Source: Nitrospirota bacterium (GTDB taxonomy: Bacteria > Nitrospirota > UBA9217). Taken from it: DNA of 64,000 bases. Below are positions 14,710-32,226 of this stretch, piece after piece. The stretch is from positions 1 to 64,000 of the forward strand of contig OY760142.1 in assembly GCA_963663225.1 (NCBI GenBank), in the 5' to 3' direction. Made by a program: the position numbers and the translations under genes. How positions within the stretch are numbered: position 1 is the stretch's first letter; each line of letters opens with the position of its first letter. The notes under the pieces were generated by a model. It was not told where the DNA came from, did no database searches, and worked only from the letters and a program-made list of their open reading frames with translations.

Positions 14710-14792
14710 ATTTGGAATACCGTCGTTTCCCTAAGTTCAACCGGGTCTTTGGGCAGTTGAAAGAAAAATACTTTTTGCGCTGTTTTGTGAAG

Positions 14793-14936
14793 CTACGAAG
14801 AACGTCTGCGATTGACGGAAGCTCTTCGTTCTGTCCCGTTTCTACGTTCGGGTCCATTATAATTTTGATTATTCAATTTTCGTCTGTCGGGATTCTTTCT
14901 CCGGTTGTCCCCTGACCTGCGTTCTTTTGTTTCCAT
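14793..14936 (-). CDS. 47-aa ERR/DRR-repeat microprotein (missed by ORF track)
   Basis: METKERRSGDNRRKNPDRRKLNNQNYNGPERRNGTERRASVNRRRSS; SD GGGGAG upstream of the ATG. Confidence 0.7.
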   Translation of the reverse strand: METKERRSGDNRRKNPDRRKLNNQNYNGPERRNGTERRASVNRRRSS

Positions 14937-15000
14937 AATCTCCCCCTATCTTTGTATTTACGAGAAGCATGCAACGTATTTTGTTGAAAGTAATTCTGCG

Positions 15001-15155
15001 AGTGGAGCCCTTTTCCGGCAGGAGCCTGAGGCTCCCTCAATAAACGCTACCTCCCGCTTGTACCCAGCGTTAACGAGTGCGATGCGCGAGTGCAGGGCAC
15101 GACTTACTGTATTTCTTCCCTAGCAGAAGCCAAGGGATTCCCTGTCTCAGGGATT
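15001..15155 (-). mobile_element. IS200/IS605-derived miniature element, copy 2
   Basis: Homologous to copies 1 and 3; two hairpins plus a 49-nt core identical to copy 3. Confidence 0.65.
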
Positions 15156-15298
15156 GAGAAGAATGGAAAAATTCTGACCGCAAGCCAACAACAGCTTTAT
15201 CAATTATTAATCTAGAATATGCTAAATAAATAAAAAAGGCAAGATTTTACAAAACACAACAGTTGAAATTTTTTGTCTTATATTTTCGAAATTTATTT

Positions 15299-15452
15299 AG
15301 TGGAGTCCCCTCCGGCAGGAGCCGGAGGCTCCTTCTATAAACGCGACCGCTCGCTTATACCCAGCGTTAACGAGTGCGATGCGCGAGTGCAGGGCACGAC
15401 TTACTGCATTCCTCACCTGGCAGGAGCCAAGGGCTTCCCTGTCGCTGAGATT
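15299..15452 (-). mobile_element. IS200/IS605-derived miniature element, copy 3
   Basis: Perfect hairpin CCTCCGGC-TCCT-GCCGGAGG, preceded by GGAG and followed by CCAC on the minus strand. Confidence 0.65.
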
Positions 15453-15842
15453 AACTGGCATAATTAATGCTTAATAAATCACGAAATTATTCTTAATTTT
15501 TTTTCATTCAAACGATAACGAATATCTGCATATTACCGAAATTAATAATGCTAAAAAAAATTACAAGCGCCTTAGCCTAGTAATTTGTTCCAGATATTTT
15601 GACAAAAAATATATTTTATATTAAAAATCAATTACATATAGAAAGTATTCCATAATATTTTAAAATTATGAGTATGAGCAATGGCTTACCGAAATAACCT
15701 ACTGCAACAAAAGTAATACTTGAAACAACTATACATATAATTAGAATTGAGTATTTTTCCCTTCAAAAAAACACTACCATGTGCTAAATTGAAACATAAG
15801 TAGCGTTCTGTAACGTTTCATTAATAAAACACGAGGACATCT

Positions 15843-17786
15843 ATGGCAGAAATATGCGTTATAGCTCCCTACGAAGATTTATCACATACGGTTTTCCAAG
15901 TAAGCCAGGAAATGAAAATGGACCTGGATATCAGAGTAGCGCGCTCTACCGAAGGGGTGATTGCCGCACGTGAAGCGGTAAAAAACGGCTGCCATGTACT
16001 GGTGAGTCGTGGCGTTACGGCCTGGCTTATCCAGCAATCGGATATAGAAGCACCGGTAGTAGTAATCCCTATTGGAGGCTATGATTTACTGCGTGCTTAT
16101 TACCAAGCCAAGGATCTCGGCGGGCCTATCGCTGTCGTGGATGTTCCCGAAGTAATACAAATGCTGGAGAGTCTTGAGAAGATCATTGGTGAAACATTCA
16201 TTAAATACACTTTGGTGAACCAGGCAGACGACATATGCAGAGGCGTCCAAACGGTAAAAGAGGCTGGTGCGCAGGTAGTGATTGGGAAAATTGCCATGGC
16301 ACGTGAAGCACATAATTACGATCTTAAAAGCGTAATTTTTAACTCTGGCAAGGAATCCGTCAGTCAGGCATTAAAAGAAGCACAAAGAGTATTCTCTGTC
16401 TATAAACAGGAAAAACGCAGGTCAGAGCAGTTGAACGCTATTCTCGATTTTGCTTATGATGGTGTAATCGCGCTCGATGAGGAAGGTCATATCACTGTTT
16501 TTAATCCAGTTGCGGAAAGACTCTCCGGATGGAAGGCGGAAGATGCCATAGGACGCAAAGTTACCGATATCATACCAAAAGCTCATTGTCAATTTTTACT
16601 CAAAACCAGTAAACCTGAACTTGGCGAAATTCTCGAACTCGGCAATAACAGGGTTGTCGCCAATCGAGTACCCATTATTGTGGATGGCAAAACAGTCGGA
16701 GTGGTATCAACATTTCAACATATAACACAGCTTCAGAATCTTGAACACAAAGTCCGCCGCATTCTTTCAGAAAAAGGACACGTTGCAAAATATACTTTTG
16801 AAGATATCATCGGTGAAAGCGAAGCAATGCGGGAAGTTACCAGCATAGCGCGGGAATATGCAGCCTCACAAGCCACAATACTCATTCACGGAGAATCAGG
16901 GACAGGCAAAGAGATGTTTGCCCATGCCATGCATCTAGTCGGCCCCCGTCGTCAAGGCCCTTTCGTCGCGATCAATTGCGCCGCTATGCCTGAGAACCTT
17001 TTGGAAAGTGAATTATTCGGCTATAGAGAAGGCGCCTTTACGGGTGCCCGTAAAGGAGGGAAGCCGGGACTGTTCGAATTGGCCCATAACGGCACAATAT
17101 TCCTCGATGAAATCGGAGAGATGTCTCCCCGGCTGCAAGCCCGGGTTCTTAGAGTGCTGGAAGAACATGAAATCATGCGTTTAGGTGATGATCGCATCAT
17201 CCCCGTAGATATCTGGGTCTTTGCTGCCACCCATCGGAACCTCAAAACCATGGTGCGAGATCAAACTTTCCGAGAAGACCTCTACTATCGCATCAACGTT
17301 CTCACACTCTCCATCCCTCCTCTACGGGAGCGGGGAGCTGATATTATCATCCTTGCAGAACGGTTCGCGCAGGAATTCTATCGTGAGCTCAACCGGTCCA
17401 TCCCCCACTTTACTCAGGAGGCGTATCGAGAGTTATTGCTCTATCCTTGGCCCGGTAATATTCGCGAACTGCGCAATGCCATGAAACGACTTTCTCTACG
17501 TTTCAATTGTGATACAGTTGGAGCCAAGGAAATCATGAGAATCCTCGAATTAGAACCAAGGTCGTGCGAAGAAAAAAAAGAACTCGGAAGAGCAGTAAAA
17601 AACGTTCCCGATGAAAAACATATAGGAAAATCACGCTTATCAGCCCATGTTGGTCGCCTTGAAAAAAGCCTTATTGAGAAAACCCTCCAAGAAACAATGG
17701 GTAATAAAGCAGAAGCTGCAAAACGGTTAAATATAAGCAGAACAACTCTGTGGAGAAAATTGCGTACAGATGAATATTCTGCATAA
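15843..17786 (+). CDS. PrpR-type sigma54-dependent activator (PrpR_N, PAS, AAA+, Fis HTH)
   Basis: N-terminal SRG motif, GESGTGKE, GAFTGA, FLDEIGE, WPGNIREL and ISRTTLWRK. Confidence 0.93.
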   Translation: MAEICVIAPYEDLSHTVFQVSQEMKMDLDIRVARSTEGVIAAREAVKNGCHVLVSRGVTAWLIQQSDIEAPVVVIPIGGYDLLRAYYQAKDLGGPIAVVDVPEVIQMLESLEKIIGETFIKYTLVNQADDICRGVQTVKEAGAQVVIGKIAMAREAHNYDLKSVIFNSGKESVSQALKEAQRVFSVYKQEKRRSEQLNAILDFAYDGVIALDEEGHITVFNPVAERLSGWKAEDAIGRKVTDIIPKAHCQFLLKTSKPELGEILELGNNRVVANRVPIIVDGKTVGVVSTFQHITQLQNLEHKVRRILSEKGHVAKYTFEDIIGESEAMREVTSIAREYAASQATILIHGESGTGKEMFAHAMHLVGPRRQGPFVAINCAAMPENLLESELFGYREGAFTGARKGGKPGLFELAHNGTIFLDEIGEMSPRLQARVLRVLEEHEIMRLGDDRIIPVDIWVFAATHRNLKTMVRDQTFREDLYYRINVLTLSIPPLRERGADIIILAERFAQEFYRELNRSIPHFTQEAYRELLLYPWPGNIRELRNAMKRLSLRFNCDTVGAKEIMRILELEPRSCEEKKELGRAVKNVPDEKHIGKSRLSAHVGRLEKSLIEKTLQETMGNKAEAAKRLNISRTTLWRKLRTDEYSA

Positions 17787-17825
17787 TGAAACATTGCGTA
17801 ACGCTTATGTTTCTTTTTTGAAACG
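17787..17825. promoter_or_regulatory. Candidate upstream activator site for the PrpR-like regulator
   Basis: TGAAACA at 17787 and palindrome TGTTTC-N6-GAAACG at 17808-17825. Related half-sites TGAAACA/CGTTTCA occur at 15790-15820, upstream of the regulator gene. Confidence 0.5.
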
Positions 17826-17956
17826 CTATTTGGCAGCAGTAATTTTTAACTACGAATTAAAAAGCTTCAAGTTACATTAGTATAGTTCCCTTCTTATCAT
17901 ATTAATCAATAGGTTTTACCCTTTCCGCTAGACGTATTCGCACATCGACATAATCA

Positions 17957-17972
17957 TGGCATGCTATTTGTA
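17957..17972 (+). promoter_or_regulatory. Sigma54 (-24/-12) promoter candidate
   Basis: TGGCATGCTATTTGTA versus consensus TGGCACG-N4-TTGCW (GT instead of GC at -12); about 130 nt downstream of the candidate activator site. Confidence 0.55.
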
Positions 17973-18372
17973 ATGCTTATAACAGCTGTTCAAATAGCAA
18001 CACTCAACATTCTCGTTGGAAAAGCAGCCAAGATTCTCTACATAGCATATAAAGCTTTGATCCATTTCAATTAGCAAACATTCTAAAAGAGACGCGTACG
18101 ACGAAATAGAATCATGCCTGAAGCAAGAAGTTCCGTCTGTCGCATCGTTGACTGGTTGACTAGTTTAGGACCTGTTCTAGCACAGGAAGACGGTATATCT
18201 TCGTTGTACAAATTACTCTCGCTGAAGGAAGGGGGGGATGAGTATAGAAGACAGTACCAGACTATGAACACCAATAATTTTTTTGCAAGTTGTATTAAAT
18301 CAAGGTTATATGATGCTGTTACCCTTGGAATCAAAATTGTCTAATTATGACGGGAGATGAAAGGAGCAATTC

Positions 18373-19689
18373 ATGGAAATGAAGAAAGAAAAGCCCACCA
18401 AAATGCGATGGTATGTCCTGTTTATGGCGAGCTTGATGTATCTGGTTACCTATATGGACCGGGTCAACATATCCGCCGCAGCGCCGATCATCAGGCAGGA
18501 ATTTGGCTTTGATAAAATCACCATGGGTATCATTTTCAGTATGTTTACATGGGGCTATGCCATGTTCCAGGTTCCGGGCGGCTGGTTGGGCGACAAGTTC
18601 GGGCCGAGAAACGTTTTGACGACAATTGTGACCTATTGGTCCATCATGACAGCAGCAACTGCCCATTGCGTTGGAGTGCTCTCATTCTCGATTGTCCGCT
18701 TCCTGTTCGGCATAGGCGAAGGCGGTGCATTCCCCACGGCAACGCGCGCGATGCAGATGTGGTTTACCAGATCAGAGCGCGGAATTGTGCAGGGCGTGAC
18801 TCACAGCGCAAGCCGTCTTGGTGCCGCAATTGTGCCTCCTATTACCGTGGCAATCATACAGGCTTTTGGCTGGCGCGCCGTGTTCTACATCTTCGGCGCA
18901 GTCGGTCTCCTTTGGGCCTTGGTGTGGTGGTACACGTATAAAGATATGCCTGAAGAGCATAAAGGGGTGAACAAGGCAGAACTCGGCCATATTCGCGGTG
19001 TCGATGAAAATGGAAACATAAAAGCTGCGAATATTGTCAAAAACCCGAAAGTGCCCTGGAGCGTGCTCTTAAGACATCCCAATATGTGGGCCATCATGTG
19101 CGGATATTTCTGCTACAACTACAACCTGTGGATATTCCTCTCTTGGCTTCCGACTTACCTCGTCGACCATCGTGGTTTTACTTTGGTGAAGATGGGTATC
19201 TTTGCCTCCCTGCCTCTTCTGGCCGGTGTTGTTGGTGATACCGTCGGCGGCTGGGCAAGCGATAAATTGCTCGAAAAAACCGGCCACACCAAATTCTCCC
19301 GGCGCGTGGTGGCAATCATAGGTATGCTCGGTTGTGCGATCTTTATGCTGGCCACCGCGCTTTCAACTGATGCGTACATGGCGGTGGGTTGCCTAACGGC
19401 AGCCATGTTCTTCCTTGAATGCATCATCGGTCCGGCATGGGCAGTCCCCATGGATGTCGGCGGACCATATTCAGGAACAGTGTCAGGTATGATGAACATG
19501 GCGGGAAATACCGGCGGAGCACTTTCACCGTTGGTCTTTGGCGTACTGGTAACGTATATGTCTTGGGAAGCACCTTTTTACGTTGCATCAGCACTGCTTG
19601 CTGTAGGTGCCTGCATCTGGGCATTCTGGCTCAATCCTGAAATTTCCGTTATTGATAAAGGCAATGTCGTAGTCAAGCATCATCAATAA
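18373..19689 (+). CDS. MFS transporter, anion:cation symporter (GudP/DgoT-like) family
   Basis: YMDRVNIS, QVPGGWLGDKFG, RFLFGIGE and WF...ERG motifs; hydrophobic pattern consistent with about 12 TM segments. Confidence 0.92.
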   Translation: MEMKKEKPTKMRWYVLFMASLMYLVTYMDRVNISAAAPIIRQEFGFDKITMGIIFSMFTWGYAMFQVPGGWLGDKFGPRNVLTTIVTYWSIMTAATAHCVGVLSFSIVRFLFGIGEGGAFPTATRAMQMWFTRSERGIVQGVTHSASRLGAAIVPPITVAIIQAFGWRAVFYIFGAVGLLWALVWWYTYKDMPEEHKGVNKAELGHIRGVDENGNIKAANIVKNPKVPWSVLLRHPNMWAIMCGYFCYNYNLWIFLSWLPTYLVDHRGFTLVKMGIFASLPLLAGVVGDTVGGWASDKLLEKTGHTKFSRRVVAIIGMLGCAIFMLATALSTDAYMAVGCLTAAMFFLECIIGPAWAVPMDVGGPYSGTVSGMMNMAGNTGGALSPLVFGVLVTYMSWEAPFYVASALLAVGACIWAFWLNPEISVIDKGNVVVKHHQ

Positions 19690-19819
19690 TAATTATTTAC
19701 TTTTTCGGGGGTCAGCCATCAATGTCCAAAGTGGCTGACGTTGTATGGCTGACCCCGCATTGCTCGAAGCGTAATTACAGAATAATAACCGGCAGACACA
19801 CGAAAACAGGAGGCTGATA

Positions 19820-20596
19820 ATGCAAGGTATGATAGAACTTTTCCATGCCGATTCACTGGGCGGACCAATGAATGAACTGAAGAAGGCATTTGAGGCCAGA
19901 AACACAGGAGTCACTATTAATCTTACTTCAGGTCGTTCCAAAGAACTCGCAGAACGTATCTTGAATGGAGATACCTGTGATATTTTCGCCCCCTCCGATC
20001 CTCAGGTTATTAAAAACCTGATGACTAAACGGGTTCAGGAAAAGCTGGCTGCGTCCTGGTATATTGCGTTTTCGGCCAATGAACTGGTTGTCATTACAAA
20101 AAAAGGCAATCCTTTCGGCATAAAACGAATGAACGATCTAACAAAAGATGGGGTCGTCCTTGCGCGAGTAAGCGGTGAAACCGATATGGGTACGAATCGG
20201 ACAATCGAATTCATCCAAAACGCGACGGCAGAGGAAGAAAATTCCGGTTTGGCACAACAAATAATAGACAGTGCTCTGAAAGCGGGCACTGTTCCCGGCG
20301 TTTTGCAGGCAGTCCAAAGCGGCAGGGCGAATGTTGGCATCGTCTATCTCTCAGCAGCGGTGTCGATTGCCAACGATGTAGATATTATTTATTTTCCAGC
20401 GACTGTAAATTTAAGCAAAAAAATCGTCAATGTAGTCACCATCCCAAGTACTGCAAAAAATATTAGAGCAGCAGACAGTTTCATTAAGCTGCTTCTGTCT
20501 GCGGATGGGAGACAAATTTTAAAGAAAACCGGGCAGCCGCCGATCGTGCCACCGCACACAGAAGGCAGCGTGCCCCCGAGTCTTCTCGCAGACTGA
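19820..20596 (+). CDS. ModA/WtpA-fold solute-binding-like protein lacking a signal peptide
   Basis: FHADSL, SGRSKELA, DIFAPSD, FSANELV and GIVYLS motifs. ATG after SD AGGAGG leads directly into the mature fold. Confidence 0.8.
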   Translation: MQGMIELFHADSLGGPMNELKKAFEARNTGVTINLTSGRSKELAERILNGDTCDIFAPSDPQVIKNLMTKRVQEKLAASWYIAFSANELVVITKKGNPFGIKRMNDLTKDGVVLARVSGETDMGTNRTIEFIQNATAEEENSGLAQQIIDSALKAGTVPGVLQAVQSGRANVGIVYLSAAVSIANDVDIIYFPATVNLSKKIVNVVTIPSTAKNIRAADSFIKLLLSADGRQILKKTGQPPIVPPHTEGSVPPSLLAD

Positions 20597-20693
20597 TTAT
20601 ACGATCCGTTTACCAATATCTTGCTGTTCCCCTTTGGGGCAGTAATTTATAATAGGCATCAGACATTTTACAGAAAGCGGAGGTGGATTTATC

Positions 20694-20993
20694 TTGGCTA
20701 AAAATTTACCGATAGTACCTACGGCAAAAGCGAACAGCATGGCCGAAGCACCGTCAGGGATAGCCTGGCGTGAACAGCACCCGGTCATCAACGACAAGTG
20801 CAATCAGTGTTTGGTATGTACCCTATACTGTCCGGAAGGCGCATTACAGCAGGACAAAGGCAAGGTGGTGCTCGTGTTGGATTTATGCAACGGTTGCGGC
20901 ACCTGCGCAGTGGAATGTCCGGAAAAGGCAATCGCCATGGTTCCCGAGTTTGAGGGTGATCGAGGCGTGTTCCCCTTAAAGGAGGGCAAATAA
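20694..20993 (+). CDS. porD: 2-oxoacid:ferredoxin oxidoreductase delta subunit (2x[4Fe-4S])
   Basis: WR...P, CNQCLVC...CP and CNGCGTC...CP. Confidence 0.9.
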   Translation: MAKNLPIVPTAKANSMAEAPSGIAWREQHPVINDKCNQCLVCTLYCPEGALQQDKGKVVLVLDLCNGCGTCAVECPEKAIAMVPEFEGDRGVFPLKEGK

Positions 20994-22141
20994 TGAGTGT
21001 AACGTTACTGACAGGCAGTGAAGCCGCGGCCTATGGGGCCAAGCTGGCGAAGATTGAAGTACTGGCATATTATCCCATCACCCCTGCGTTTCCCGCGATG
21101 GAGCGGCTGAGCAAATTTATCGACGACGGTGAGTTGAATGCCCGGTTTGTGCGTGTGGAAGGCGATCACAGCGCGCTGGCCGCGGCCCTTGGCGCATCGT
21201 TGGCAGGAAGCAGGGCCTTCACGGTGACCAATTCCCAGGGTCTTTTGTACATGACCGAGGTGGTGTATCACACGGCAGGCCTGCGGCAGCCGGTGGTCAT
21301 GGCAGTGGCCAACCGGGCGCTTTCCGCACCCCACAGCCGTTTCCCCGAGCACGGCGATGTGATTTCCCAGGACGCCAGCGGCTGGATTCTGCTGTTTTGC
21401 GAGAACAACCAGGAAGTACTGGACACCACCCTGCAGGCGTTCAAGGTTGCAGAAACATGCCGTCTGCCGGTGATGGTCAACTACGAGGGATACATTCAAT
21501 CCCATACCCAGGAAGAAGTGGATGTTCCGGAGCAGGCAAAGGTGGACGCGTTCCTGCCCTTCAAGCGGGTGGCCACGCTGGACGTCAACAATCCGCAGGG
21601 CGTGAACACCGTTGCCAGCCCTGAGTTTTATATGGATTACAAGTTCCGCCAGAATGAAGCAATGGAGCAGGCACTGGAAACCATCAACACGACCGCGGGC
21701 GACTTCGGCAAGGCATTCGGCCGGAACTGGTCCGGTGTCATCGAAGGCTACCAGATGGCCGACGCAGAGCATGCGGTGGTGGCCATGGGTTCAGCCGTTG
21801 CTGACTGCCGGGTGGTTGTGGATGCATTGCGCGCAGAAGGCAAGAAGGTTGGGCTGGTCAAAGTCAGATCGTTCCGCCCCTTCCCTGCCGAGGCGCTGCG
21901 CACGATGTTAAAGAACACCAAGCTGGTGACTGTCCTGGACAAGAACATCGTGTTCGGATCCGGCGGCGCCCTTGGAAACGAGACAAAATCAGCGCTGTAT
22001 GGTCATTTTGCAGTCCCCGTAAAGAACTTCATTGTCGGCCTGGGCGGCCGGGACTTCAGACCGGATGAAATCAAGCAGGTGCTCAGCCAGTCTGAAGAGC
22101 GTGCGAAACAGACAGCAGCGTATGAATGGTTCGGATTATAA
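20993..22141 (+). CDS. porA: 2-oxoacid:ferredoxin oxidoreductase alpha subunit
   Basis: YPITP, NSQGLLYM, ANRALSAP, VRSFRPFP and GLGGRD motifs. Confidence 0.93.
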   Translation: MSVTLLTGSEAAAYGAKLAKIEVLAYYPITPAFPAMERLSKFIDDGELNARFVRVEGDHSALAAALGASLAGSRAFTVTNSQGLLYMTEVVYHTAGLRQPVVMAVANRALSAPHSRFPEHGDVISQDASGWILLFCENNQEVLDTTLQAFKVAETCRLPVMVNYEGYIQSHTQEEVDVPEQAKVDAFLPFKRVATLDVNNPQGVNTVASPEFYMDYKFRQNEAMEQALETINTTAGDFGKAFGRNWSGVIEGYQMADAEHAVVAMGSAVADCRVVVDALRAEGKKVGLVKVRSFRPFPAEALRTMLKNTKLVTVLDKNIVFGSGGALGNETKSALYGHFAVPVKNFIVGLGGRDFRPDEIKQVLSQSEERAKQTAAYEWFGL

Positions 22142-22159
22142 GAATAAGGAGGAAGGCTT

Positions 22160-23026
22160 GTGACGATCAATATAAAAGAGTTACCACAACAGGATTTATT
22201 CGGCCCGGGCAACGCGGGTTGCCGCGGCTGTGGTGCCGCGATTGCCGGCAGACAGGCAATGAAAGTGTTGGGACCCCGGACCATTATCAGCATACCGGCT
22301 TCCTGCATGGCCACCCTCAGCGGGAGCAATCAGAGAACCGCATGGAGTATTCCTTTTTATCACACTCTGTTCGAGATCGCTCCTGCGATTTCATCGGGAG
22401 TCCGTGCGTCACTGGACGTCCAGGGGATCAAAGACGTGAATGTCGTATCATGGGGCGGCGACGCCGGATCGGCCGACATCGGTTTCCAGGCATTGTCGGG
22501 TGCGGCAGAGCGCAACGAATCCATTATTCATGTTTGTTATGACAATGAAATGTACATGAACACCAGCGGCCAGACCGGGAGCCAGACTCCCCTGTATGCC
22601 GCGACGACGAACGAACAGAAGGGCAAGAAGACCAATAAAAAAGATATGCTTGCGATCATGGTGGCGCATGGCGCCGGATATGTGGCAAGCGCGTCCATAT
22701 CCCATCCGCTGGACCTGATGGAGAAGTTCAAGAAGGCGGCCGCTCATGACGGTTTCGCGTATATCCACATCCTGGCCCCGTGCTATCGCGGCTGGAACAT
22801 CCCCACGGACAAGTCGGTGGACACCGCGAGAAAGGCCGTTGAAAGCGGTATGTGGGAACTGTATGAGGTAGTGGACGGCAAAAAAACCCGGACGTACGAA
22901 CCTTCATTCATTCCGGTGGCCGACTATCTGAAGCCGCAGGGCCGGTTCAAGCACCTGACGGCAGCTCAGATTCAAGAGGTGCAGAATGCCGTGAATCGCC
23001 ACTTTGGGCGTAAGGAGGCAAAATAA
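22160..23026 (+). CDS. porB: 2-oxoacid:ferredoxin oxidoreductase beta subunit (TPP binding)
   Basis: CRGCG, ASCM, GGDAGSADIG, YDNEMYMNT and APC motifs. Confidence 0.93.
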   Translation: MTINIKELPQQDLFGPGNAGCRGCGAAIAGRQAMKVLGPRTIISIPASCMATLSGSNQRTAWSIPFYHTLFEIAPAISSGVRASLDVQGIKDVNVVSWGGDAGSADIGFQALSGAAERNESIIHVCYDNEMYMNTSGQTGSQTPLYAATTNEQKGKKTNKKDMLAIMVAHGAGYVASASISHPLDLMEKFKKAAAHDGFAYIHILAPCYRGWNIPTDKSVDTARKAVESGMWELYEVVDGKKTRTYEPSFIPVADYLKPQGRFKHLTAAQIQEVQNAVNRHFGRKEAK

Positions 23027-23028
23027 TT

Positions 23029-23457
23029 ATGCGTGAGATTCGTCTACACGGTCGATTCGGGCAGCCGGTTGCCAAGCTGGCAACGGCAATAGGAAAAAAG
23101 GCCATGGCAAACGGCAAGCATGTACAGATTGCCAATGCGTTTGCCGCGTTCCGTCCCGGAGGACCCATGAATGTCGTAATCAGGACCGATGCGGCGCCGA
23201 TCAAGGAGCGGTCATCCAACAATACCAAGCCGGACATTGTAGTAGTGCTTGACAACACCTTGTTCAAGGCAATGGATGTGACCAAGGGAATGAAAAAAGG
23301 CGGCACGGTGATGGCCCTGGGCGCCGATAAAAACGTATTGGGTGACAAGGCAGGTCAGTTCACTTTTGTGGCTATGGACCCCTTCTTTAAGGGCCGTGGT
23401 GCGAATGAAGTCGAAGCCGGCGTCATCAGCAGCCTCGAAAATCAAAAGGCCATATAG
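23029..23457 (+). CDS. porC: 2-oxoacid:ferredoxin oxidoreductase gamma subunit, short and divergent
   Basis: EIRLHGRFGQP, RPGGP and PDIVVVLDNTL; only 142 aa. Confidence 0.8.
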   Translation: MREIRLHGRFGQPVAKLATAIGKKAMANGKHVQIANAFAAFRPGGPMNVVIRTDAAPIKERSSNNTKPDIVVVLDNTLFKAMDVTKGMKKGGTVMALGADKNVLGDKAGQFTFVAMDPFFKGRGANEVEAGVISSLENQKAI

Positions 23458-23497
23458 TCATACCACACATGCATCGGCATGTGTAAGGAGGAATAAA

Positions 23498-26398
23498 ATG
23501 GGCTCGGCACAAACAAACGATTCATGTTGTGGTGAAAAAAACCACACATTAAATCCGGAAAAAGTATTTACCGAGATCAAAGCAATGATCAAAGGCGACG
23601 TCCTTTACGATGATCTCACCCGGACAATTTACAGCAGTGCAGCATGTCTTTTTCAGGTGAAACCCCTGGGAATCGTGCTTCCTAAAGACAAGGATGACGT
23701 CGTCCAGGTTGTTAAATACGCCAGCAAAAATAAAATCCCTCTTATTCCCCGTGGAGGCGGTACGAGCCGCGCAGGAAATGAACTGGGTGAAGGAATCATA
23801 CTGGACTTTTCCCGCTATATGAACAATATGCTGGAGGAAAATGCAGGAGAAAAATGGGCCAGGGTCCAACCGGGCATCACGCAAGGAGGACTGAACAATC
23901 TGCTTAAACCGCAAAAGCTTTTCTTTCCGATCGACCCCTCGACGAAAGAACACTGCACATTCGGCGGCATGATTGCCAATAATTCCAGCGGTCCGCATGC
24001 CATTAAATACGGTGCTGCGCGGGATAACGTCATCTCACTCGAAATAGTTCTCCCCACTGGAGAAATTATAAACACAGGACCAGTTTCAGGTGGGGAAATT
24101 TCCGGAAACATCGGAAATATCTACCAGGGGGTTGATGATGTATTGAAACGCTACCAGAAACCTCTAGAAGATGAGAAGCCGTTCACCATCAAGAACTCCT
24201 CAGGGTATGATCTCTGGAGAATCAAGAACAATGGAACAATGGATCTCACTTCACTTTTGGTAGGTTCCGAAGGCACGCTCGGCATCATTACTGAAGCGAA
24301 AGTCAAGCTCTGGCCGTTGCCGGGTAAAACACTGGGCGGTCTGGTCTATTTCGACAGCCTGGAGAAAGTCGGCAAGGCAGTCGTGAAAATACTCGAATTT
24401 TCTCCGACCATGCTGGAAATTATTGAACGGCGGATTCTCGACTTGGCCCGTCAACAGAAGGCTGAAATGCGTCCCTACCTGCCGGACGGCATAGAAGCGA
24501 TGCTCTTCATCGAGTTTGAAGAAAAAGATGAGGCTGAGCTCCGCAACAAGTTTGCCAAAGTCGAACAGGCCATGAAGAGCGAAAACTTGTCCATCGATAT
24601 GAAAGTAGCGAAGGACAAAAAAGACATGGAAATGCTGGGCAAAGTCCGGCAAATTTCCGGGCCTATCCTGAACAAAACAAAAGGACCGAAAAAACCAATA
24701 GCCTTCATTGAAGATGCCGCAGTCCATCCCACCAGACTCCCGCAGTATATTCAGGGACTGAGAAGCATATTCAGCAAATACGGCGTTGATGCCGGCGTCT
24801 ACGGACACGCCGGTGACGGCAACATGCACCTCATGGTTTTTCTGGATCTACGCCAGGAAGAAGAAGTCAAAAAGATGCTTGCCATTGCTGATGAGACCTA
24901 CAATCTTGTCTTTTCATTAAAAGGCACGATCAGCGGTGAGCATGGCGATGGTCGCCTTCGCACCTACTACACCAAAAAACAATACCCCAAACTGTATGCT
25001 GCATTTGAGGAAATAAAAAAACTATTTGACCCGGACAATATTTTCAATCCCGGATCAATCGTGGGCGGTGGGGAGAATCCTCTCGCTCAATATCTCAAAT
25101 TCAAAAGTAAAGATGAAAAAGCAGCATTGTCCGCCATTCTCACCAAGGAATTGGTACAAGAGGCAAGCAGCACCTGCTCCGGCTGCGGAAAGTGCCGCTC
25201 CTACTGTCCGGTAGCCATGAAAGTTCTCGATGAGTTTGCGCTTGGAAGGGCCAAGGCAACGCTGATTCGCGGCTATCTGAACGGAACCATTGATAAAAAA
25301 ATCCTGGATTCTCCAAAATTCAAAGAAGTTCTTGACGCCTGCGTAAACTGCAAACGTTGTCTGACGGAATGCCCGTCAGGAGCAGACATACCCTGGCTTG
25401 CGGTTGAAGGCCGGCATTATGTAGTGGATCGAGACGGTGAACCTTTCGGACAGAGAATTCTTGCAAGCACAAAGGATCTTTGCCGGACCTCAAGCATGTT
25501 CGCACCTTTGGTAAACCTGACCAATTCCCTGAAGCCTTTCCGTAAAGGCCTGGAACTGGCTGTTGGCCTTGATGCCCGCCGCACGCTTCCGAAGTTCCCG
25601 AACAAGACCCTGCGGCAGATGCTTGAAAACCGACCGCGGAAGACCAGCGAGAAGAAGGTTGTTCTTTTCCTAGGCTGCTATTCCACTTACAATGAGCCCG
25701 AAGAGGACGGTCTGGCAACAATAGAAATTCTTGAGAAAAACGGTTATGAAGTCCTTCTGCCTGATTTCCGCTGCTGCGGAATCGCACGCCTCAGTGCCGG
25801 AGGTATTGACCAGGTTGGGGACGACATAAACTACAACATTAAAAAGCTGTCGGAATTTGTCGACAAGGGCTATCCCATCATTTTCAGCGAATCAAGCTGC
25901 GCCCTTGCGATCAAGATGGAATATCCGAAAATTGTGAATTCGGACGATGCAAAAAAAGTTTCAAAAAACTGTATTGATATCCATGACTTCCTGATGCAGC
26001 TCCACAAAAAAGGAGAGCTTAATCTGGATTTCGGCAAAATAGACCTTAAAATCGGATATCACAATCCCTGCCATCTCCGGGCCCTCGGGGTCACTAAGCA
26101 ACCGGTTGAATTGCTCAACCTGATCCCCGGTGTAACTGCCCAGGCATATTCCGACGCATGCTGCGGTATCTCAGGAACATTCGGTATGAAGAAGAAGAAT
26201 TTCGATCTCTCTATGAAAATCGGAGAGCGGTTGTTTAAAGAGATAAAGGCTTCAGACGCGCAGGAGCTTGCCACCGGATGCGGCGCTTGTGCAATGCAGA
26301 TATTCCAGGGAACGCAAAGAAAAGCGGTAACCCCGGTATCGCTGCTCGCAAAAGCATATAAGTTGAAGGAACAATCCTCAACTGCCAAAGCAAGTTAA
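23498..26398 (+). CDS. FAD-linked 2-hydroxyacid dehydrogenase fused to Fe-S/CCG domains (GlcD+GlcF, YdiJ-like)
   Basis: RGGGTS, GSEGTLG, HAGDGNMH, SGEHGDG, CSGCGKC, CVNCKRC, CCG repeats and YHNPCH. SD AAGGAGG before ATG 23498. Confidence 0.92.
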   Translation: MGSAQTNDSCCGEKNHTLNPEKVFTEIKAMIKGDVLYDDLTRTIYSSAACLFQVKPLGIVLPKDKDDVVQVVKYASKNKIPLIPRGGGTSRAGNELGEGIILDFSRYMNNMLEENAGEKWARVQPGITQGGLNNLLKPQKLFFPIDPSTKEHCTFGGMIANNSSGPHAIKYGAARDNVISLEIVLPTGEIINTGPVSGGEISGNIGNIYQGVDDVLKRYQKPLEDEKPFTIKNSSGYDLWRIKNNGTMDLTSLLVGSEGTLGIITEAKVKLWPLPGKTLGGLVYFDSLEKVGKAVVKILEFSPTMLEIIERRILDLARQQKAEMRPYLPDGIEAMLFIEFEEKDEAELRNKFAKVEQAMKSENLSIDMKVAKDKKDMEMLGKVRQISGPILNKTKGPKKPIAFIEDAAVHPTRLPQYIQGLRSIFSKYGVDAGVYGHAGDGNMHLMVFLDLRQEEEVKKMLAIADETYNLVFSLKGTISGEHGDGRLRTYYTKKQYPKLYAAFEEIKKLFDPDNIFNPGSIVGGGENPLAQYLKFKSKDEKAALSAILTKELVQEASSTCSGCGKCRSYCPVAMKVLDEFALGRAKATLIRGYLNGTIDKKILDSPKFKEVLDACVNCKRCLTECPSGADIPWLAVEGRHYVVDRDGEPFGQRILASTKDLCRTSSMFAPLVNLTNSLKPFRKGLELAVGLDARRTLPKFPNKTLRQMLENRPRKTSEKKVVLFLGCYSTYNEPEEDGLATIEILEKNGYEVLLPDFRCCGIARLSAGGIDQVGDDINYNIKKLSEFVDKGYPIIFSESSCALAIKMEYPKIVNSDDAKKVSKNCIDIHDFLMQLHKKGELNLDFGKIDLKIGYHNPCHLRALGVTKQPVELLNLIPGVTAQAYSDACCGISGTFGMKKKNFDLSMKIGERLFKEIKASDAQELATGCGACAMQIFQGTQRKAVTPVSLLAKAYKLKEQSSTAKAS

Positions 26399-26568
26399 GC
26401 AGGAAGCAAAAAACTAGTCGTTAAAGGCAGCAGGTGCAGCAGACATGTTGACACCAGGGATATGACAACGAGATTAAAAACATGTCTGCTGCTCCTTGCT
26501 GTTCCCCTTTGGGGCAGTAATTTATAATAGGCATCAGACATTTTACAGAAAGCGGAGGTGGATTTATC

Positions 26569-26868
26569 TTGGCTAAAAATTTACCGATAGTACCTACGGC
26601 AAAAGCGAACAGCATGGCCGAAGCACCGTCAGGGATAGCCTGGCGTGAACAGCACCCGGTCATCAACGACAAGTGCAATCAGTGTTTGGTATGTACCCTA
26701 TACTGTCCGGAAGGCGCATTACAGCAGGACAAAGGCAAGGTGGTGCTCGTGTTGGATTTATGCAACGGTTGCGGCACCTGCGCAGTGGAATGTCCGGAAA
26801 AGGCAATCGCCATGGTTCCCGAGTTTGAGGGTGATCGAGGCGTGTTCCCCTTAAAGGAGGGCAAATAA
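26569..26868 (+). CDS. porD: OFOR delta subunit, copy 2
   Basis: Identical to 20694-20993. Confidence 0.9.
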   Translation: MAKNLPIVPTAKANSMAEAPSGIAWREQHPVINDKCNQCLVCTLYCPEGALQQDKGKVVLVLDLCNGCGTCAVECPEKAIAMVPEFEGDRGVFPLKEGK

Positions 26869-28016
26869 TGAGTGTAACGTTACTGACAGGCAGTGAAGCC
26901 GCGGCCTATGGGGCCAAGCTGGCGAAGATTGAAGTACTGGCATATTATCCCATCACCCCTGCGTTTCCCGCGATGGAGCGGCTGAGCAAATTTATCGACG
27001 ACGGTGAGTTGAATGCCCGGTTTGTGCGTGTGGAAGGCGATCACAGCGCGCTGGCCGCGGCCCTTGGCGCATCGTTGGCAGGAAGCAGGGCCTTCACGGT
27101 GACCAATTCCCAGGGTCTTTTGTACATGACCGAGGTGGTGTATCACACGGCAGGCCTGCGGCAGCCGGTGGTCATGGCAGTGGCCAACCGGGCGCTTTCC
27201 GCACCCCACAGCCGTTTCCCCGAGCACGGCGATGTGATTTCCCAGGACGCCAGCGGCTGGATTCTGCTGTTTTGCGAGAACAACCAGGAAGTACTGGACA
27301 CCACCCTGCAGGCGTTCAAGGTTGCAGAAACATGCCGTCTGCCGGTGATGGTCAACTACGAGGGATACATTCAATCCCATACCCAGGAAGAAGTGGATGT
27401 TCCGGAGCAGGCAAAGGTGGACGCGTTCCTGCCCTTCAAGCGGGTGGCCACGCTGGACGTCAACAATCCGCAGGGCGTGAACACCGTTGCCAGCCCTGAG
27501 TTTTATATGGATTACAAGTTCCGCCAGAATGAAGCAATGGAGCAGGCACTGGAAACCATCAACACGACCGCGGGCGACTTCGGCAAGGCATTCGGCCGGA
27601 ACTGGTCCGGTGTCATCGAAGGCTACCAGATGGCCGACGCAGAGCATGCGGTGGTGGCCATGGGTTCAGCCGTTGCTGACTGCCGGGTGGTTGTGGATGC
27701 ATTGCGCGCAGAAGGCAAGAAGGTTGGGCTGGTCAAAGTCAGATCGTTCCGCCCCTTCCCTGCCGAGGCGCTGCGCACGATGTTAAAGAACACCAAGCTG
27801 GTGACTGTCCTGGACAAGAACATCGTGTTCGGATCCGGCGGCGCCCTTGGAAACGAGACAAAATCAGCGCTGTATGGTCATTTTGCAGTCCCCGTAAAGA
27901 ACTTCATTGTCGGCCTGGGCGGCCGGGACTTCAGACCGGATGAAATCAAGCAGGTGCTCAGCCAGTCTGAAGAGCGTGCGAAACAGACAGCAGCGTATGA
28001 ATGGTTCGGATTATAA
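26868..28016 (+). CDS. porA: OFOR alpha subunit, copy 2
   Basis: Identical to 20993-22141. Confidence 0.93.
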   Translation: MSVTLLTGSEAAAYGAKLAKIEVLAYYPITPAFPAMERLSKFIDDGELNARFVRVEGDHSALAAALGASLAGSRAFTVTNSQGLLYMTEVVYHTAGLRQPVVMAVANRALSAPHSRFPEHGDVISQDASGWILLFCENNQEVLDTTLQAFKVAETCRLPVMVNYEGYIQSHTQEEVDVPEQAKVDAFLPFKRVATLDVNNPQGVNTVASPEFYMDYKFRQNEAMEQALETINTTAGDFGKAFGRNWSGVIEGYQMADAEHAVVAMGSAVADCRVVVDALRAEGKKVGLVKVRSFRPFPAEALRTMLKNTKLVTVLDKNIVFGSGGALGNETKSALYGHFAVPVKNFIVGLGGRDFRPDEIKQVLSQSEERAKQTAAYEWFGL

Positions 28017-28034
28017 GAATAAGGAGGAAGGCTT

Positions 28035-28901
28035 GTGACGATCAATATAAAAGAGTTACCACAACAGGATTTATTCGGCCCGGGCAACGCGGGTTGCCGC
28101 GGCTGTGGTGCCGCGATTGCCGGCAGACAGGCAATGAAAGTGTTGGGACCCCGGACCATTATCAGCATACCGGCTTCCTGCATGGCCACCCTCAGCGGGA
28201 GCAATCAGAGAACCGCATGGAGTATTCCTTTTTATCACACTCTGTTCGAGATCGCTCCTGCGATTTCATCGGGAGTCCGTGCGTCACTGGACGTCCAGGG
28301 GATCAAAGACGTGAATGTCGTATCATGGGGCGGCGACGCCGGATCGGCCGACATCGGTTTCCAGGCATTGTCGGGTGCGGCAGAGCGCAACGAATCCATT
28401 ATTCATGTTTGTTATGACAATGAAATGTACATGAACACCAGCGGCCAGACCGGGAGCCAGACTCCCCTGTATGCCGCGACGACGAACGAACAGAAGGGCA
28501 AGAAGACCAATAAAAAAGATATGCTTGCGATCATGGTGGCGCATGGCGCCGGATATGTGGCAAGCGCGTCCATATCCCATCCGCTGGACCTGATGGAGAA
28601 GTTCAAGAAGGCGGCCGCTCATGACGGTTTCGCGTATATCCACATCCTGGCCCCGTGCTATCGCGGCTGGAACATCCCCACGGACAAGTCGGTGGACACC
28701 GCGAGAAAGGCCGTTGAAAGCGGTATGTGGGAACTGTATGAGGTAGTGGACGGCAAAAAAACCCGGACGTACGAACCTTCATTCATTCCGGTGGCCGACT
28801 ATCTGAAGCCGCAGGGCCGGTTCAAGCACCTGACGGCAGCTCAGATTCAAGAGGTGCAGAATGCCGTGAATCGCCACTTTGGGCGTAAGGAGGCAAAATA
28901 A
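28035..28901 (+). CDS. porB: OFOR beta subunit, copy 2
   Basis: Identical to 22160-23026. Confidence 0.93.
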   Translation: MTINIKELPQQDLFGPGNAGCRGCGAAIAGRQAMKVLGPRTIISIPASCMATLSGSNQRTAWSIPFYHTLFEIAPAISSGVRASLDVQGIKDVNVVSWGGDAGSADIGFQALSGAAERNESIIHVCYDNEMYMNTSGQTGSQTPLYAATTNEQKGKKTNKKDMLAIMVAHGAGYVASASISHPLDLMEKFKKAAAHDGFAYIHILAPCYRGWNIPTDKSVDTARKAVESGMWELYEVVDGKKTRTYEPSFIPVADYLKPQGRFKHLTAAQIQEVQNAVNRHFGRKEAK

Positions 28902-28903
28902 TT

Positions 28904-29332
28904 ATGCGTGAGATTCGTCTACACGGTCGATTCGGGCAGCCGGTTGCCAAGCTGGCAACGGCAATAGGAAAAAAGGCCATGGCAAACGGCAAGCATGTAC
29001 AGATTGCCAATGCGTTTGCCGCGTTCCGTCCCGGAGGACCCATGAATGTCGTAATCAGGACCGATGCGGCGCCGATCAAGGAGCGGTCATCCAACAATAC
29101 CAAGCCGGACATTGTAGTAGTGCTTGACAACACCTTGTTCAAGGCAATGGATGTGACCAAGGGAATGAAAAAAGGCGGCACGGTGATGGCCCTGGGCGCC
29201 GATAAAAACGTATTGGGTGACAAGGCAGGTCAGTTCACTTTTGTGGCTATGGACCCCTTCTTTAAGGGCCGTGGTGCGAATGAAGTCGAAGCCGGCGTCA
29301 TCAGCAGCCTCGAAAATCAAAAGGCCATATAG
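28904..29332 (+). CDS. porC: OFOR gamma subunit, copy 2
   Basis: Identical to 23029-23457. Confidence 0.8.
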   Translation: MREIRLHGRFGQPVAKLATAIGKKAMANGKHVQIANAFAAFRPGGPMNVVIRTDAAPIKERSSNNTKPDIVVVLDNTLFKAMDVTKGMKKGGTVMALGADKNVLGDKAGQFTFVAMDPFFKGRGANEVEAGVISSLENQKAI

Positions 29333-29473
29333 TCATACCACACATGCAACAACTGCATGGGTAATAAACAATTTGCTTCAATCATCCAACCGTCTCGCAC
29401 ATTATGCATCACGTGAAATATCGTGAATTCCCAGGTTTTACCCGGCCCTGGGTGTTCCTTTATTTCACATTAC

Positions 29474-29510
29474 AATGCCTTCTATCGTTTAGATAGAAGG
29501 CATTTCTTTT
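29474..29510 (+). terminator. Rho-independent terminator
   Basis: AATGCCTTCTATC-GTTTA-GATAGAAGGCATT followed by TCTTTT. Confidence 0.8.
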
Positions 29511-29618
29511 ATAAAAAACCGCATAATATATCTTCCCAATGGTTTTCTTGACAGATAATCATATACGCATCTATACTTTAAGCAGGAGCTGATATATTCA
29601 GTTCAGAGGAGGTTTAAC

Positions 29619-30785
29619 ATGAATTTCATGACTGGACGCCATTTTCTTCAGATTCCGGGCCCGACAAACGTACCGGACCGGATATTGCGGGCAATGGCTA
29701 AACCGACAATCGATCATCGCGGCCCCGAGTTTTCACGAGTGGCCCTCGAAGTGCTGGATGGTCTGAAGCAAATCTCTAAAACAACCGGATCGGTGGTGGT
29801 ATATCCCTCTTCCGGGACCGGTGCGTGGGAAGCAGCTCTGGTGAACATTCTCTCTCCCGGTGACCGGGTTTTAATGGTTGAAACCGGCCACTTTGCCACA
29901 CTCTGGAAAGGCATTGCAGTCCGCTTCGGACTGGAAGTTGACTTTATTCCAACTGACTGGAGACGTGGAGCCGATCCGGCCATGATCGAAGAAAAGCTGA
30001 TCCAGGACCGGGAACGGAGAATTAAGGCCGTGGCCATTGTGCATAACGAGACATCGACGGGAGTAACAAGCCGAATTGCGGAAATCCGCAAGGCAATCGA
30101 CCGGGCTGCCCATCCGGCCTTGTTCCTGGTTGATACAATCTCGTCCCTGGCATCAATTGATTACCGGCACGATGAATGGCAAGTCGATGTAATGGCCGGT
30201 TGTTCCCAGAAAGGTCTGATGCTGCCGCCTGGATTGGGCATCAATGCCATCAGTGCAAAAGCCCTGTCCGCCGCCAAAACAGCGCGCTTGCCGAAGTCTT
30301 ATTGGGATTGGGAACCTATGCTCAATGCCAATAAAATGGGTTTTTTCCCCTATACTCCACCAACCAATCTGTTGTACGGGCTTCAAGAATCCCTGCAGAT
30401 GCTGCGGGAGGAAGGCCTGGAAAAGGTTTTCGCACGGCACGACCGTCATGCCGAAGCAACGCGCCGTGCAGTTCGGGCGTGGGGGCTTGAACTGCTTTGC
30501 CTTAATCCGGACGAATACAGCAGTTCACTTACTGCGGTACTCATGCCTGCAGGTCACAATGCCGACGCCTTTCGCAAAGTTGTCCTGGAGCATTTCAACA
30601 TGTCTCTAGGAAATGGCCTGGATAAAGTTGCAGGCAGGGTTTTCCGCATCGGGCATCTGGGCAATTTCAACGATCTCATGCTGGCGGGAACGCTCAGTGG
30701 AGTGGAAATGGGCTTGGGTCTTGCAAATGTTCCTTATGCCAAAGGTGGCGTCATGGCGGCACTTGAATATCTGGGACAGAAGTAA
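29619..30785 (+). CDS. sgaA: Serine-glyoxylate aminotransferase (class V PLP)
   Basis: GRHFLQIPGPTNVPDR, SGTGAWE, HNETSTG, SQKGLMLPPG and FRIGHLG. Own promoter candidate TTGACA-N18-TATACT near 29548. Confidence 0.9.
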   Translation: MNFMTGRHFLQIPGPTNVPDRILRAMAKPTIDHRGPEFSRVALEVLDGLKQISKTTGSVVVYPSSGTGAWEAALVNILSPGDRVLMVETGHFATLWKGIAVRFGLEVDFIPTDWRRGADPAMIEEKLIQDRERRIKAVAIVHNETSTGVTSRIAEIRKAIDRAAHPALFLVDTISSLASIDYRHDEWQVDVMAGCSQKGLMLPPGLGINAISAKALSAAKTARLPKSYWDWEPMLNANKMGFFPYTPPTNLLYGLQESLQMLREEGLEKVFARHDRHAEATRRAVRAWGLELLCLNPDEYSSSLTAVLMPAGHNADAFRKVVLEHFNMSLGNGLDKVAGRVFRIGHLGNFNDLMLAGTLSGVEMGLGLANVPYAKGGVMAALEYLGQK

Positions 30786-30829
30786 TCCTGGCAGCAGAAT
30801 GGGAAAAGGCTGTTTCTGTGCGCGGCACC

Positions 30830-32062: not shown

Positions 32063-32226
32063 GCAGGCCTGGCTGTGTATGCTCAGGCTAGAATTGATGG
32101 CCTTCTGCTGTCACTCACCGCAGATTTGGAACGTTCGGGAGAAGAACAACGAGTTGGAAATTATTATGATATCCAGCGTTTCAGAATCATTGTCGATGGC
32201 TTCCGCACTGAAAAAAAACTGTGAAA

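Follow-up and report, generated by a model that had tools for sequence, protein, structure and literature searches.

We analysed a 64-kb window, the first 64 kb of the closed, single-contig genome (3,255,001 bp; contig OY760142.1) of a Nitrospirota bacterium, and in it a gene cluster built around a 2-oxoacid:ferredoxin oxidoreductase (OFOR) whose subunits carry unusual motifs. All genes of the cluster lie on the plus strand. A σ54 enhancer-binding activator with PrpR_N, PAS, Sigma54_activat (AAA+) and HTH_8 domains (Pfam; 15843-17786) is followed by an organic-anion carrier of the major facilitator superfamily (MFS; 18373-19689) and by a solute-binding-like protein with the ModA/WtpA fold (19820-20596). 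Four genes encode the OFOR: delta (20694-20993), alpha (20993-22141), beta (22160-23026) and gamma (23029-23457). Downstream are a fused FAD/Fe-S/CCG D-2-hydroxyacid dehydrogenase (23498-26398), a second OFOR set identical to the first (delta 26569-26868, alpha 26868-28016, beta 28035-28901, gamma 28904-29332) and a class-V aminotransferase (29619-30785). An initial annotation, made from the sequence alone, had placed every one of these kinds of gene correctly but had listed the OFOR set once; it occurs twice, without a single difference over 2,854 bp. Our reading, to which we give a probability of roughly 0.6, is that the cluster is a catabolic module under σ54 control, in which the OFOR acts oxidatively on some 2-oxoacid, polar or anionic, that is not pyruvate. 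The nearest public relatives are metagenome-assembled genomes (MAGs) labelled Nitrospiraceae or Nitrospirota, with gamma identities of 99, 80 and 77% on public genome contigs.

The domains of the OFOR subunits are readily recognised. Delta has two [4Fe-4S] ferredoxin motifs of the form CxxCxxCxxxCP (Fer4 families; PorD_KorD, TIGR02179, 69.6 bits, over the cutoff of 60.05), and alpha combines POR_N and PFOR_II. Beta has a TPP_enzyme_C domain, the CxxC, PASC and APC cysteines of the proximal cluster can be read in its sequence, and its Mg/diphosphate motif is GDA(G)...YDNEMYMNT. Three departures from solved OFORs to which the initial annotation had drawn attention are all present. Gamma, a compact domain III of 142 aa, has HGRFGQP where chains 9bt4_E and 2raa_A have HGRGGQG or HGRAGQG; beta has GDA where 9bt4_C, 5c4i_C, 6cin_A and 6n2n_B have GDG; and the substrate loop of alpha holds Arg116, along with Arg108 and His114. 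The change from GDG to GDA is conservative and we give it little weight.

These motifs are strongly conserved. We counted them in the window and 61 family loci, with both window copies included. GR[F/Y]GQ[P/S] is found in 52 of 54 gamma open reading frames (ORFs), the other two being truncated, and GRGGQG in none. Likewise, 47 of 49 alpha ORFs have APH[S/T]RFP (the other two are truncated), 53 of 58 beta ORFs have GDA (the other five are truncated), and PASC[M/F]AT is present in 51 of the 58. Among 88 candidates, 56 are gamma homologues at E<=1e-5, nearly all of them ~142 aa long; in 27 aligned sequences, reaching down to 50% identity, conservation is at least 90% at every position of the motif (G8, R9, F10, G11, Q12 and P13). 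The initial annotation had named a lack of GRFGQP in homologues as the sign of decay. Conservation of the motif argues instead that the OFOR is not decaying, and that the motif changes are traits of a family. A gamma profile gave 1,671 matches at E<=0.001 among 1.84 billion cluster representatives, only six of them at E<=1e-30. The seven best matches are 123-147 aa long, six with GR[F/Y/H]GQP and one with GRFEQP, and GRGGQG is present in 110 of the 150 matches listed.

A canonical Por-like paralogue in the same genome, near 1.19 Mb and in the order gamma-delta-alpha-beta, retains the ordinary motifs: its gamma is 191 aa long and has HGRGGQG, its alpha reads NRALSGPINIHGDH, with Ile at the position of Arg116, and its beta has GGDGG, with CLEV. 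We built a quick maximum-likelihood tree of 56 alpha sequences (43 from the family and 13 outgroup), omitting alphas shorter than 360 or longer than 430 aa, three exact duplicates, and two loci (L038 and L039) with no ORF passing the filter. All 43 family sequences fall on one side of a branch with SH-aLRT support of 100 and a length of 1.36, and all 13 outgroup alphas have Ile at the Arg116 position. The Nitrospirota alphas form a shallow clade beside Negativicutes-labelled sequences, inside an otherwise Bacillota tree, and identity across the phyla is 73-78%. This suggests that the module may have been acquired laterally by Nitrospirota. The clade, a small one, extends over sulfate- and sulfite-reducing Bacillota, Negativicutes-labelled MAGs and Nitrospirota; cultured carriers include Desulfosporosinus lacus DSM 15449, D. 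fructosivorans and Neomoorella sulfitireducens, and sequence close to that of the window is found in digester, bioreactor, wastewater and sludge runs. A third OFOR of this genome, at ~1,682,910-1,684,632, appears to be of the two-subunit KorAB type; hence, 2-oxoglutarate may already have its own enzyme.

The two OFOR sets form a perfect direct repeat of 2,854 bp (20620-23473 and 26495-29348), identical at every base, with the dehydrogenase gene between the copies. Each copy comprises a 74-nt leader, the delta-alpha-beta-gamma genes and a further 16 nt, and just beyond the repeat identity falls to 16-34% per 50-nt window. A mis-join during assembly could yield such a repeat. We placed contigs and unitigs of public sequencing runs on positions 22600-27300. 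In run X19, which matches 99% of sampled words and may be the source sample, the repeat is a unitig of 2,854 nt at a depth of 23.1, and the dehydrogenase is at 12.5 and the flanks at 13.7 and 12.9. The unitig ends left loose at 23473 and 26495 read into the sequence that follows copy 2 and the sequence that precedes copy 1; these spell the other two junctions, and so all four repeat junctions exist. In run X1, a biofilm metagenome from another study, the repeat unitig (2,825 nt) has a depth of 33.8, the dehydrogenase 17.1 and the flank 17.0, and the strain is ~2% divergent (its dehydrogenase contig differs at 60 of 3,111 letters and its repeat at 14 of 866). Run X23 gave only fragmentary contigs at low depth. 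The double depth in two separate studies, together with the four junctions, indicates that the duplication is real. Furthermore, every frame is open and the motifs are conserved across the family, so that we consider the chance that copy 2 was mis-assembled, or that the odd motifs reflect degeneration, to be negligible. Each strain has one collapsed repeat unitig at double depth, though the strains differ from each other, which suggests that, within a strain, the copies do not drift apart, whether through gene conversion or through a shared recent origin.

Other features of the repeat were also noted. The first bases of each copy form a hairpin with a 10-bp stem and a T-rich tract (20621-20645 and 26496-26520), just after the ModA-like gene in one case and just after the dehydrogenase gene in the other; it could be an attenuator, a processing site or the mark of a recombination boundary. 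In a Gracilibacteraceae MAG (L026, 7670-17480), two OFOR sets flank GlcD, GlcF-like and NAD-dependent D-isomer 2-hydroxyacid dehydrogenase genes. This layout echoes the OFOR-dehydrogenase-OFOR arrangement of the window; the two sets have diverged, with alphas 64 and 66% identical to that of the window.

The association of the OFOR with the activator is invariable: an orthologue of the activator is present with the OFOR in 32 of the 32 loci with at least 2.5 kb of upstream sequence. The activator scores below the NCBIfam equivalog cutoffs for PrdR and PrpR, and is therefore neither of these proper. The genome encodes RpoN (447.5 bits against a cutoff of 277). Of 30 loci that could be scored, 24 have a σ54 element, TGGCA[C/T]-N5-TTGC[A/T], matching 9-11 of the 11 specified positions, in the stretch that separates the activator from the first gene of the operon; by our own estimate, the chance expectation is ~0.015 per locus. 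In the window, the only intergenic σ54-like matches are a site at 15456 and a weak -24/-12 site at 17957-17971 on the plus strand (TGGCATGCTATTTGT), which has GT in place of the -12 GC and which we regard only as a lead.

Genes for uptake and for oxidation of 2-hydroxyacids also recur near the OFOR. We counted neighbours within 6 kb of the OFOR in the 34 sources (of 61 that bear it) with at least 4 kb downstream. A carrier of some kind is present in 27 of the 34: 13 have a MatC/CitMHS-like carrier, six GntP, six TRAP, and three an MFS carrier of the anion:cation symporter (ACS) subfamily. GlcD is found in 16 and a GlcF-like protein in 13, and 18 of the 34 have GlcD, a GlcF-like protein or the fused dehydrogenase. 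The pairing of a 2-hydroxyacid dehydrogenase with the OFOR, which the initial annotation drew from this one locus, is thus a recurrent one. The fused form of the dehydrogenase is limited to the window and one other locus (L007), and the ModA-like protein occurs in six sources.

In other lineages, the commonest partner (21 of 34) is a large subunit of the aconitase/isopropylmalate-isomerase family. Its closest relatives are the large subunits of homoaconitase (209 bits) and isopropylmalate/citramalate isomerase (194 bits) from M. jannaschii, and in the ESM Atlas it has generic isopropylmalate-dehydratase names only. Products of this family are presumably (2R)-2-hydroxy acids, which would suit GlcD-type D-2-hydroxyacid dehydrogenases. 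In six loci (L020, 13078-13515; L024, 15966-16436; and four others), a protein of ~145 aa follows an aconitase-like, GlcF-like or MatC-like gene. As a candidate aconitase small subunit it gave no Pfam match at E<=0.1 (two examples) and no NCBIfam match at E<=0.001 (one example). In L010 (12525-15243) and L012, both Veillonellaceae-labelled MAGs, a xylose-isomerase-like TIM-barrel protein follows a block of OFOR, carrier and solute-binding protein, and in L010 the TIM-barrel protein is itself followed by a split transketolase, a possible link to hydroxypyruvate or glycolaldehyde.

We read the sensor-activator, the OFOR and the carrier as the conserved unit, with lineage-specific enzymes that would funnel related acids into one 2-oxoacid. 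The funnel enzyme would be the fused D-2-hydroxyacid dehydrogenase in this genome and in L007, and, in many Bacillota, an aconitase-type hydratase/dehydratase with or without GlcD and GlcF. The initial annotation had proposed routes from C2-C3 acids, such as glycolate to glyoxylate. These acids are still candidates; the aconitase-like partner and the MatC, GntP, TRAP and ACS carriers speak no less strongly for di- or tricarboxylates of the hydroxy or unsaturated kind. The glyoxylate/serine logic of that annotation is weakened, because the aminotransferase adjoins the OFOR in only two of the 34 sources, the window and a 99%-identical relative (L005), and it appears to be transcribed separately.

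Indeed, the aminotransferase probably forms its own transcription unit. A terminator-like hairpin with a 13-bp stem and a T-run (29474-29504) lies after OFOR copy 2, and a σ70-like promoter, TTGACA-18-TATACT, with 11 of 12 consensus positions (29548-29577), precedes the gene; both lie on the plus strand and come from consensus scans whose totals are near the shuffle means (30 promoters against 20.0, sd 4.7; 25 terminators against 20.2, sd 5.0). The protein is of the BhcA/serine-glyoxylate type (Aminotran_5), a likeness at family level only (451 bits against a BhcA cutoff of 650). A radical-SAM-domain ORF on the minus strand (30830-32062) is convergent to it and is 97% conserved in L005.

The dehydrogenase has the architecture of YdiJ (FAD_binding_4, FAD-oxidase_C, Fer4 and two CCG domains), with a GlpC-like C-terminal half. 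Its score for the YdiJ model is 417.7 against a cutoff of 1350, so that the architecture does not imply the identity of the substrate; for GlpC (PRK11168) it scores 333 against 278. The most likely start is the ATG at 23498 behind AGGAGG, giving 966 aa, rather than an upstream GTG that overlaps gamma. The orthologue in L007, which also comes after gamma, is 967 aa long and 78% identical.

The MFS carrier (MFS_1) is of the ACS or D-galactonate type; its best NCBIfam match is TIGR00893, '2A0114', at 303 bits, below the cutoff of 395. An orthologue with 65% identity adjoins the OFOR in a Desulfosporosinus locus (L019). The ModA-like protein (SBP_bac_11) scores 80.6 bits for modA (TIGR01256), over the cutoff of 62.5. 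Matches to WtpA/ModA chains in the PDB span only residues ~4-100 and 198-254, which leaves unaligned the middle third, the part that we take to bind the oxyanion. A signal peptide is missing from this protein in the window, L006 and L010, and orthologues in L007 (a second copy, 13383-14225) and L009 (7125-8012) have hydrophobic N-terminal extensions that resemble one.

Upstream of the activator, a GC-rich element of 142 nt occurs twice (15014-15155 and 15311-15452, 88% identity). More copies, with 77-82% identity, lie at genome positions 611413, 1931984 and 2144433, together with fragments, and the element looks like a dispersed repeat; it has no Rfam match and no fold signal on either strand (z = -0.19 and -0.78). 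Rfam matched nothing over 14500-32500 at E<=0.1. An ORF of the phage-integrase family lies at 1628-2848, near genome coordinate 1.

What might the OFOR act on? In D. africanus PFOR (DaPFOR, a pyruvate:ferredoxin oxidoreductase), Arg114 and Thr31 bind the carboxylate of the substrate, and Leu121, Ile843 and Asn996 line the pocket for its methyl group, according to a passage of PMC5020499. Alignments made with HMMER place Arg108 and Thr30 of the window alpha at Arg114 and Thr31, and the beta equivalent of Asn996 is also retained. Arg116 aligns with Ile123 of DaPFOR, with an Ile of M. acetivorans PFOR and with Phe117 of oxalate oxidoreductase (OOR). The alpha loop is one residue shorter at Leu121, and beta has Thr52 at the position of Ile843, where the compared enzymes have Ile or Val. 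Ile123 of DaPFOR presumably contacts the methyl group itself. With Arg for Ile, a shortened loop and Thr52, the window OFOR lacks the hydrophobic methyl-group pocket of PFOR. The carboxylate grip is kept while the side-chain pocket is polar and cationic, which argues against pyruvate and for a substrate with an anionic or hydroxylated side chain. Hence, the loop with its invariant Arg116 and His114, and Thr52, all at pocket positions, lend good support, at the level of sequence, to the new specificity that the initial annotation had suspected.

Candidate substrates include hydroxypyruvate, glyoxylate, oxalate and oxo-dicarboxylates such as oxaloacetate, mesoxalate or 2-oxoglutarate. An oxo-dicarboxylate would suit the Arg, the carriers of dicarboxylate type and the aconitase-like partner. 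The neighbouring aminotransferase, like the Hyi-like TIM barrel and split transketolase of L010, would suit hydroxypyruvate or glyoxylate. Oxalate fits CoA independence best, yet leaves the partner enzymes unexplained.

The second question is whether the enzyme uses CoA. The P-loop of OFOR domain III binds CoA (a statement in PMC8091585, citing Chen 2018). GLGSDG of M. thermoacetica PFOR aligns, by way of the paralogue gamma, with the canonical GRGGQG; Phe10 and Pro13 thus replace the second and third glycines of GxGxxG in the window gamma, which reads G-R-F-G-Q-P. A structural model of gamma (pLDDT 91.5) has the fold of domain III, with TMq of 0.73-0.76 to chains of 9bt4 and 5c4i, and, compared with canonical gammas, gamma is missing the PNTPMLGA-type segment and ~45 residues at the C-terminus. 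Its score for the broad PorC_KorC subfamily is 63.5, under the cutoff of 81.1, whereas the paralogue gamma clears that cutoff at 204. No CoA-transferase, phosphotransacylase or acyl-CoA synthetase is found among the annotated recurrent neighbour clusters. Together, the two replaced glycines, the shortened domain III and this lack of recurrent CoA-handling neighbours make CoA independence plausible. With the canonical P-loop blocked, the acyl or carboxyl intermediate would be either released without CoA or passed to CoA by way of a non-canonical site.

We propose that the PrpR_N-type activator would sense a small acid and turn on the operon, and that the carrier would then import the substrate. 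In this genome, the fused FAD/Fe-S D-2-hydroxyacid dehydrogenase would convert it to a 2-oxoacid, whose polar or anionic group would be met by the Arg116/His114 loop and Thr52. The OFOR would decarboxylate this 2-oxoacid oxidatively, passing electrons through three [4Fe-4S] clusters to ferredoxin, and the homogenised 2.85-kb repeat would double the dose of the enzyme.

Several observations weigh against this proposal. The aconitase-like partner has no orthologue in this genome, and its role is unexplained. σ54 consensus matches in the window number 48 against ~65 expected, and none is convincing. Neighbours of the GlcD/GlcF type and with LUD domains also recall lactate-utilisation operons, whose OFOR is a plain PFOR. 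Failure to reach NCBIfam equivalog cutoffs might seem to count as evidence of novelty: the window OFOR misses all four of those for PFOR (PorA_Arch, 425 against 550; PorB, 314 against 405; PorC, 70.7 against 270; PorD_Arch, 68 against 120). We rejected this argument; the missed PorA and PorB cutoffs are not diagnostic because the paralogue, with its canonical motifs, misses both too (479 against 550 and 354 against 405). Finally, the gammas are under strong purifying selection (mean column identity of 73%), as one would predict for a subunit that still binds a ligand such as CoA.

A rival reading is an enzyme that, like the OOR of Moorella, would release its oxidised intermediate without a thioester. 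Such an enzyme would turn oxalate into CO2 or glyoxylate into formate, or would hydrolyse an acyl-thiamine diphosphate (acyl-TPP), as pyruvate oxidase does. The aromatic residue and Pro in 52 of the 54 family gammas, the trimmed domain III, the PorC_KorC score that separates window from paralogue gamma, the absence of CoA-handling enzymes among annotated recurrent neighbours, and an additional pocket Arg, which OOR has too but at another position, all argue for it. On the other hand, gamma is conserved rather than lost, scores for OOR equivalogs are far below the cutoffs (255 against 500 and 226 against 590), the fused gamma-delta subunit of OOR is missing, and neither oxalate nor glyoxylate explains the aconitase-like partner. 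Moreover, acetyl-CoA or succinyl-CoA as products would need no dedicated neighbour genes. We consider CoA independence possible, at somewhat below even odds, and lean slightly towards continued use of CoA.

An ordinary CoA-dependent oxidoreductase of pyruvate, or of branched-chain 2-oxoacids, within a lactate or hydroxyacid operon would account for the best NCBIfam likeness (PorA/PorB and VorB), for M. acetivorans PFOR being the closest solved structure (alpha, 297.6 bits), and for the resemblance of the GlcD/GlcF-type and LUD-domain neighbours to D- and L-lactate dehydrogenases. We nonetheless think it improbable, given an invariant Arg where the paralogue and 13 of 13 outgroup alphas have Ile, Thr52 in place of Ile or Val, a disrupted P-loop, annotated recurrent carriers of the MatC/CitMHS, GntP, ACS-MFS and TRAP types with none of the lactate-permease (LctP) type, and a canonical Por-like set already present in the genome. 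OFORs are reversible in principle, as stated in PMC13768988, so that the enzyme could also work reductively as a synthase, carboxylating an acyl donor to a 2-oxoacid for biosynthesis. This direction is highly improbable for genes that are invariably accompanied by a ligand-sensing σ54 activator and by uptake carriers, an arrangement typical of catabolic operons, and that have neighbours which vary as they do in substrate-utilisation islands. Oxidation of a polar or anionic 2-oxoacid in a catabolic module, with the direction of flux that this implies, is thus the explanation that we prefer.

In anaerobes, it is chiefly through OFORs that organic acids enter low-potential electron flow. To our knowledge, few OFOR specificities have been characterised, and only OOR is known to work without CoA. 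The family described here is currently annotated simply as "pyruvate ferredoxin oxidoreductase" (members are named "pyruvate ferredoxin oxidoreductase gamma subunit" or "2-oxoacid:acceptor oxidoreductase family protein"). Each locus has a dedicated sensor-activator and carriers, which marks the acid as important to these organisms, and the existence of cultured carriers makes the question directly testable. In the literature, we found no description of the clade, of the pairing of such a regulator with an OFOR, of a glyoxylate-type OFOR or of a second CoA-independent OFOR; the supplementary regulon tables of PMC6615313 may bear on the point, and the main text of that paper makes no mention of oxoacid, ketoacid, aconitase or glycolate. 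A bolder and more doubtful possibility is that the family is a second, independently evolved CoA-independent branch after OOR. In such a branch, an aromatic-plus-proline plug would fill the P-loop, an Arg/His loop would grip a small anionic 2-oxoacid (of the oxalate, glyoxylate, mesoxalate or oxaloacetate type), and low-potential electrons would be obtained without a thioester; the module would have spread laterally from Bacillota to Nitrospirota and been amplified there as a homogenised repeat.

How does the window OFOR compare with known systems? The PorABCD-type PFOR of M. acetivorans (PDB 9bt4) has the same four polypeptides and domains and is the best sequence match (alpha 297.6, beta 213.5 and gamma 48.4 bits). 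The two share the carboxylate-binding Thr and Arg, the TPP/Mg motif, the cysteine pattern of the proximal cluster and the two ferredoxin motifs. They differ in gene order (delta-alpha-beta-gamma in the window and gamma-delta-alpha-beta in PorABCD) and in or near the methyl pocket, where Arg116, His114 and Thr52 of the window replace Ile, Ile and Val. They also differ in gamma (142 aa with GRFGQP against 182 aa with GRGGQG) and in the GDA or GDG of beta.

The OOR of Moorella thermoacetica does not require CoA, according to a passage of PMC5020499. The OOR chain (PDB 5c4i) failed to align over the P-loop segment in every comparison, which is consistent with the altered P-loop that the initial annotation ascribed to OOR and is no proof of it. 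OOR and the window OFOR both have a second Arg near the substrate, at different positions, and OOR has a variable 'switch' loop where the window has SAPHSRFPE; the functional roles of these OOR residues are ones that we presume. The extra Arg of OOR lies in YPIRP, and the window has YPITP. Furthermore, OOR fuses domains III and V in one subunit of 315 aa, whereas gamma and delta are separate genes here, and scores for the OOR models NF045790-92 are well short of the cutoffs (255 against 500; 226 against 590; 32 and 60 against 230).

H. pylori OorDABC (PDB 8ys5), a 2-oxoglutarate:acceptor oxidoreductase, is CoA-dependent, with succinyl-CoA measured in PMC12307629. It shares the delta-alpha-beta-gamma order of genes and subunits with the window, and its substrate is an anionic 2-oxoacid. 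In sequence it is distant: beta matches at 42.8 bits, and alpha is absent among matches at E<=1e-10. Lactate-utilisation operons of sulfate reducers combine a GlcD/GlcF-type D-lactate dehydrogenase, LutABC and PFOR. They follow the same logic as the locus described here, a 2-hydroxyacid dehydrogenase feeding an OFOR in one operon. Unlike these operons, the window family has other carriers, an aconitase-family partner, σ54/PrpR_N control and a pocket that does not suit pyruvate.

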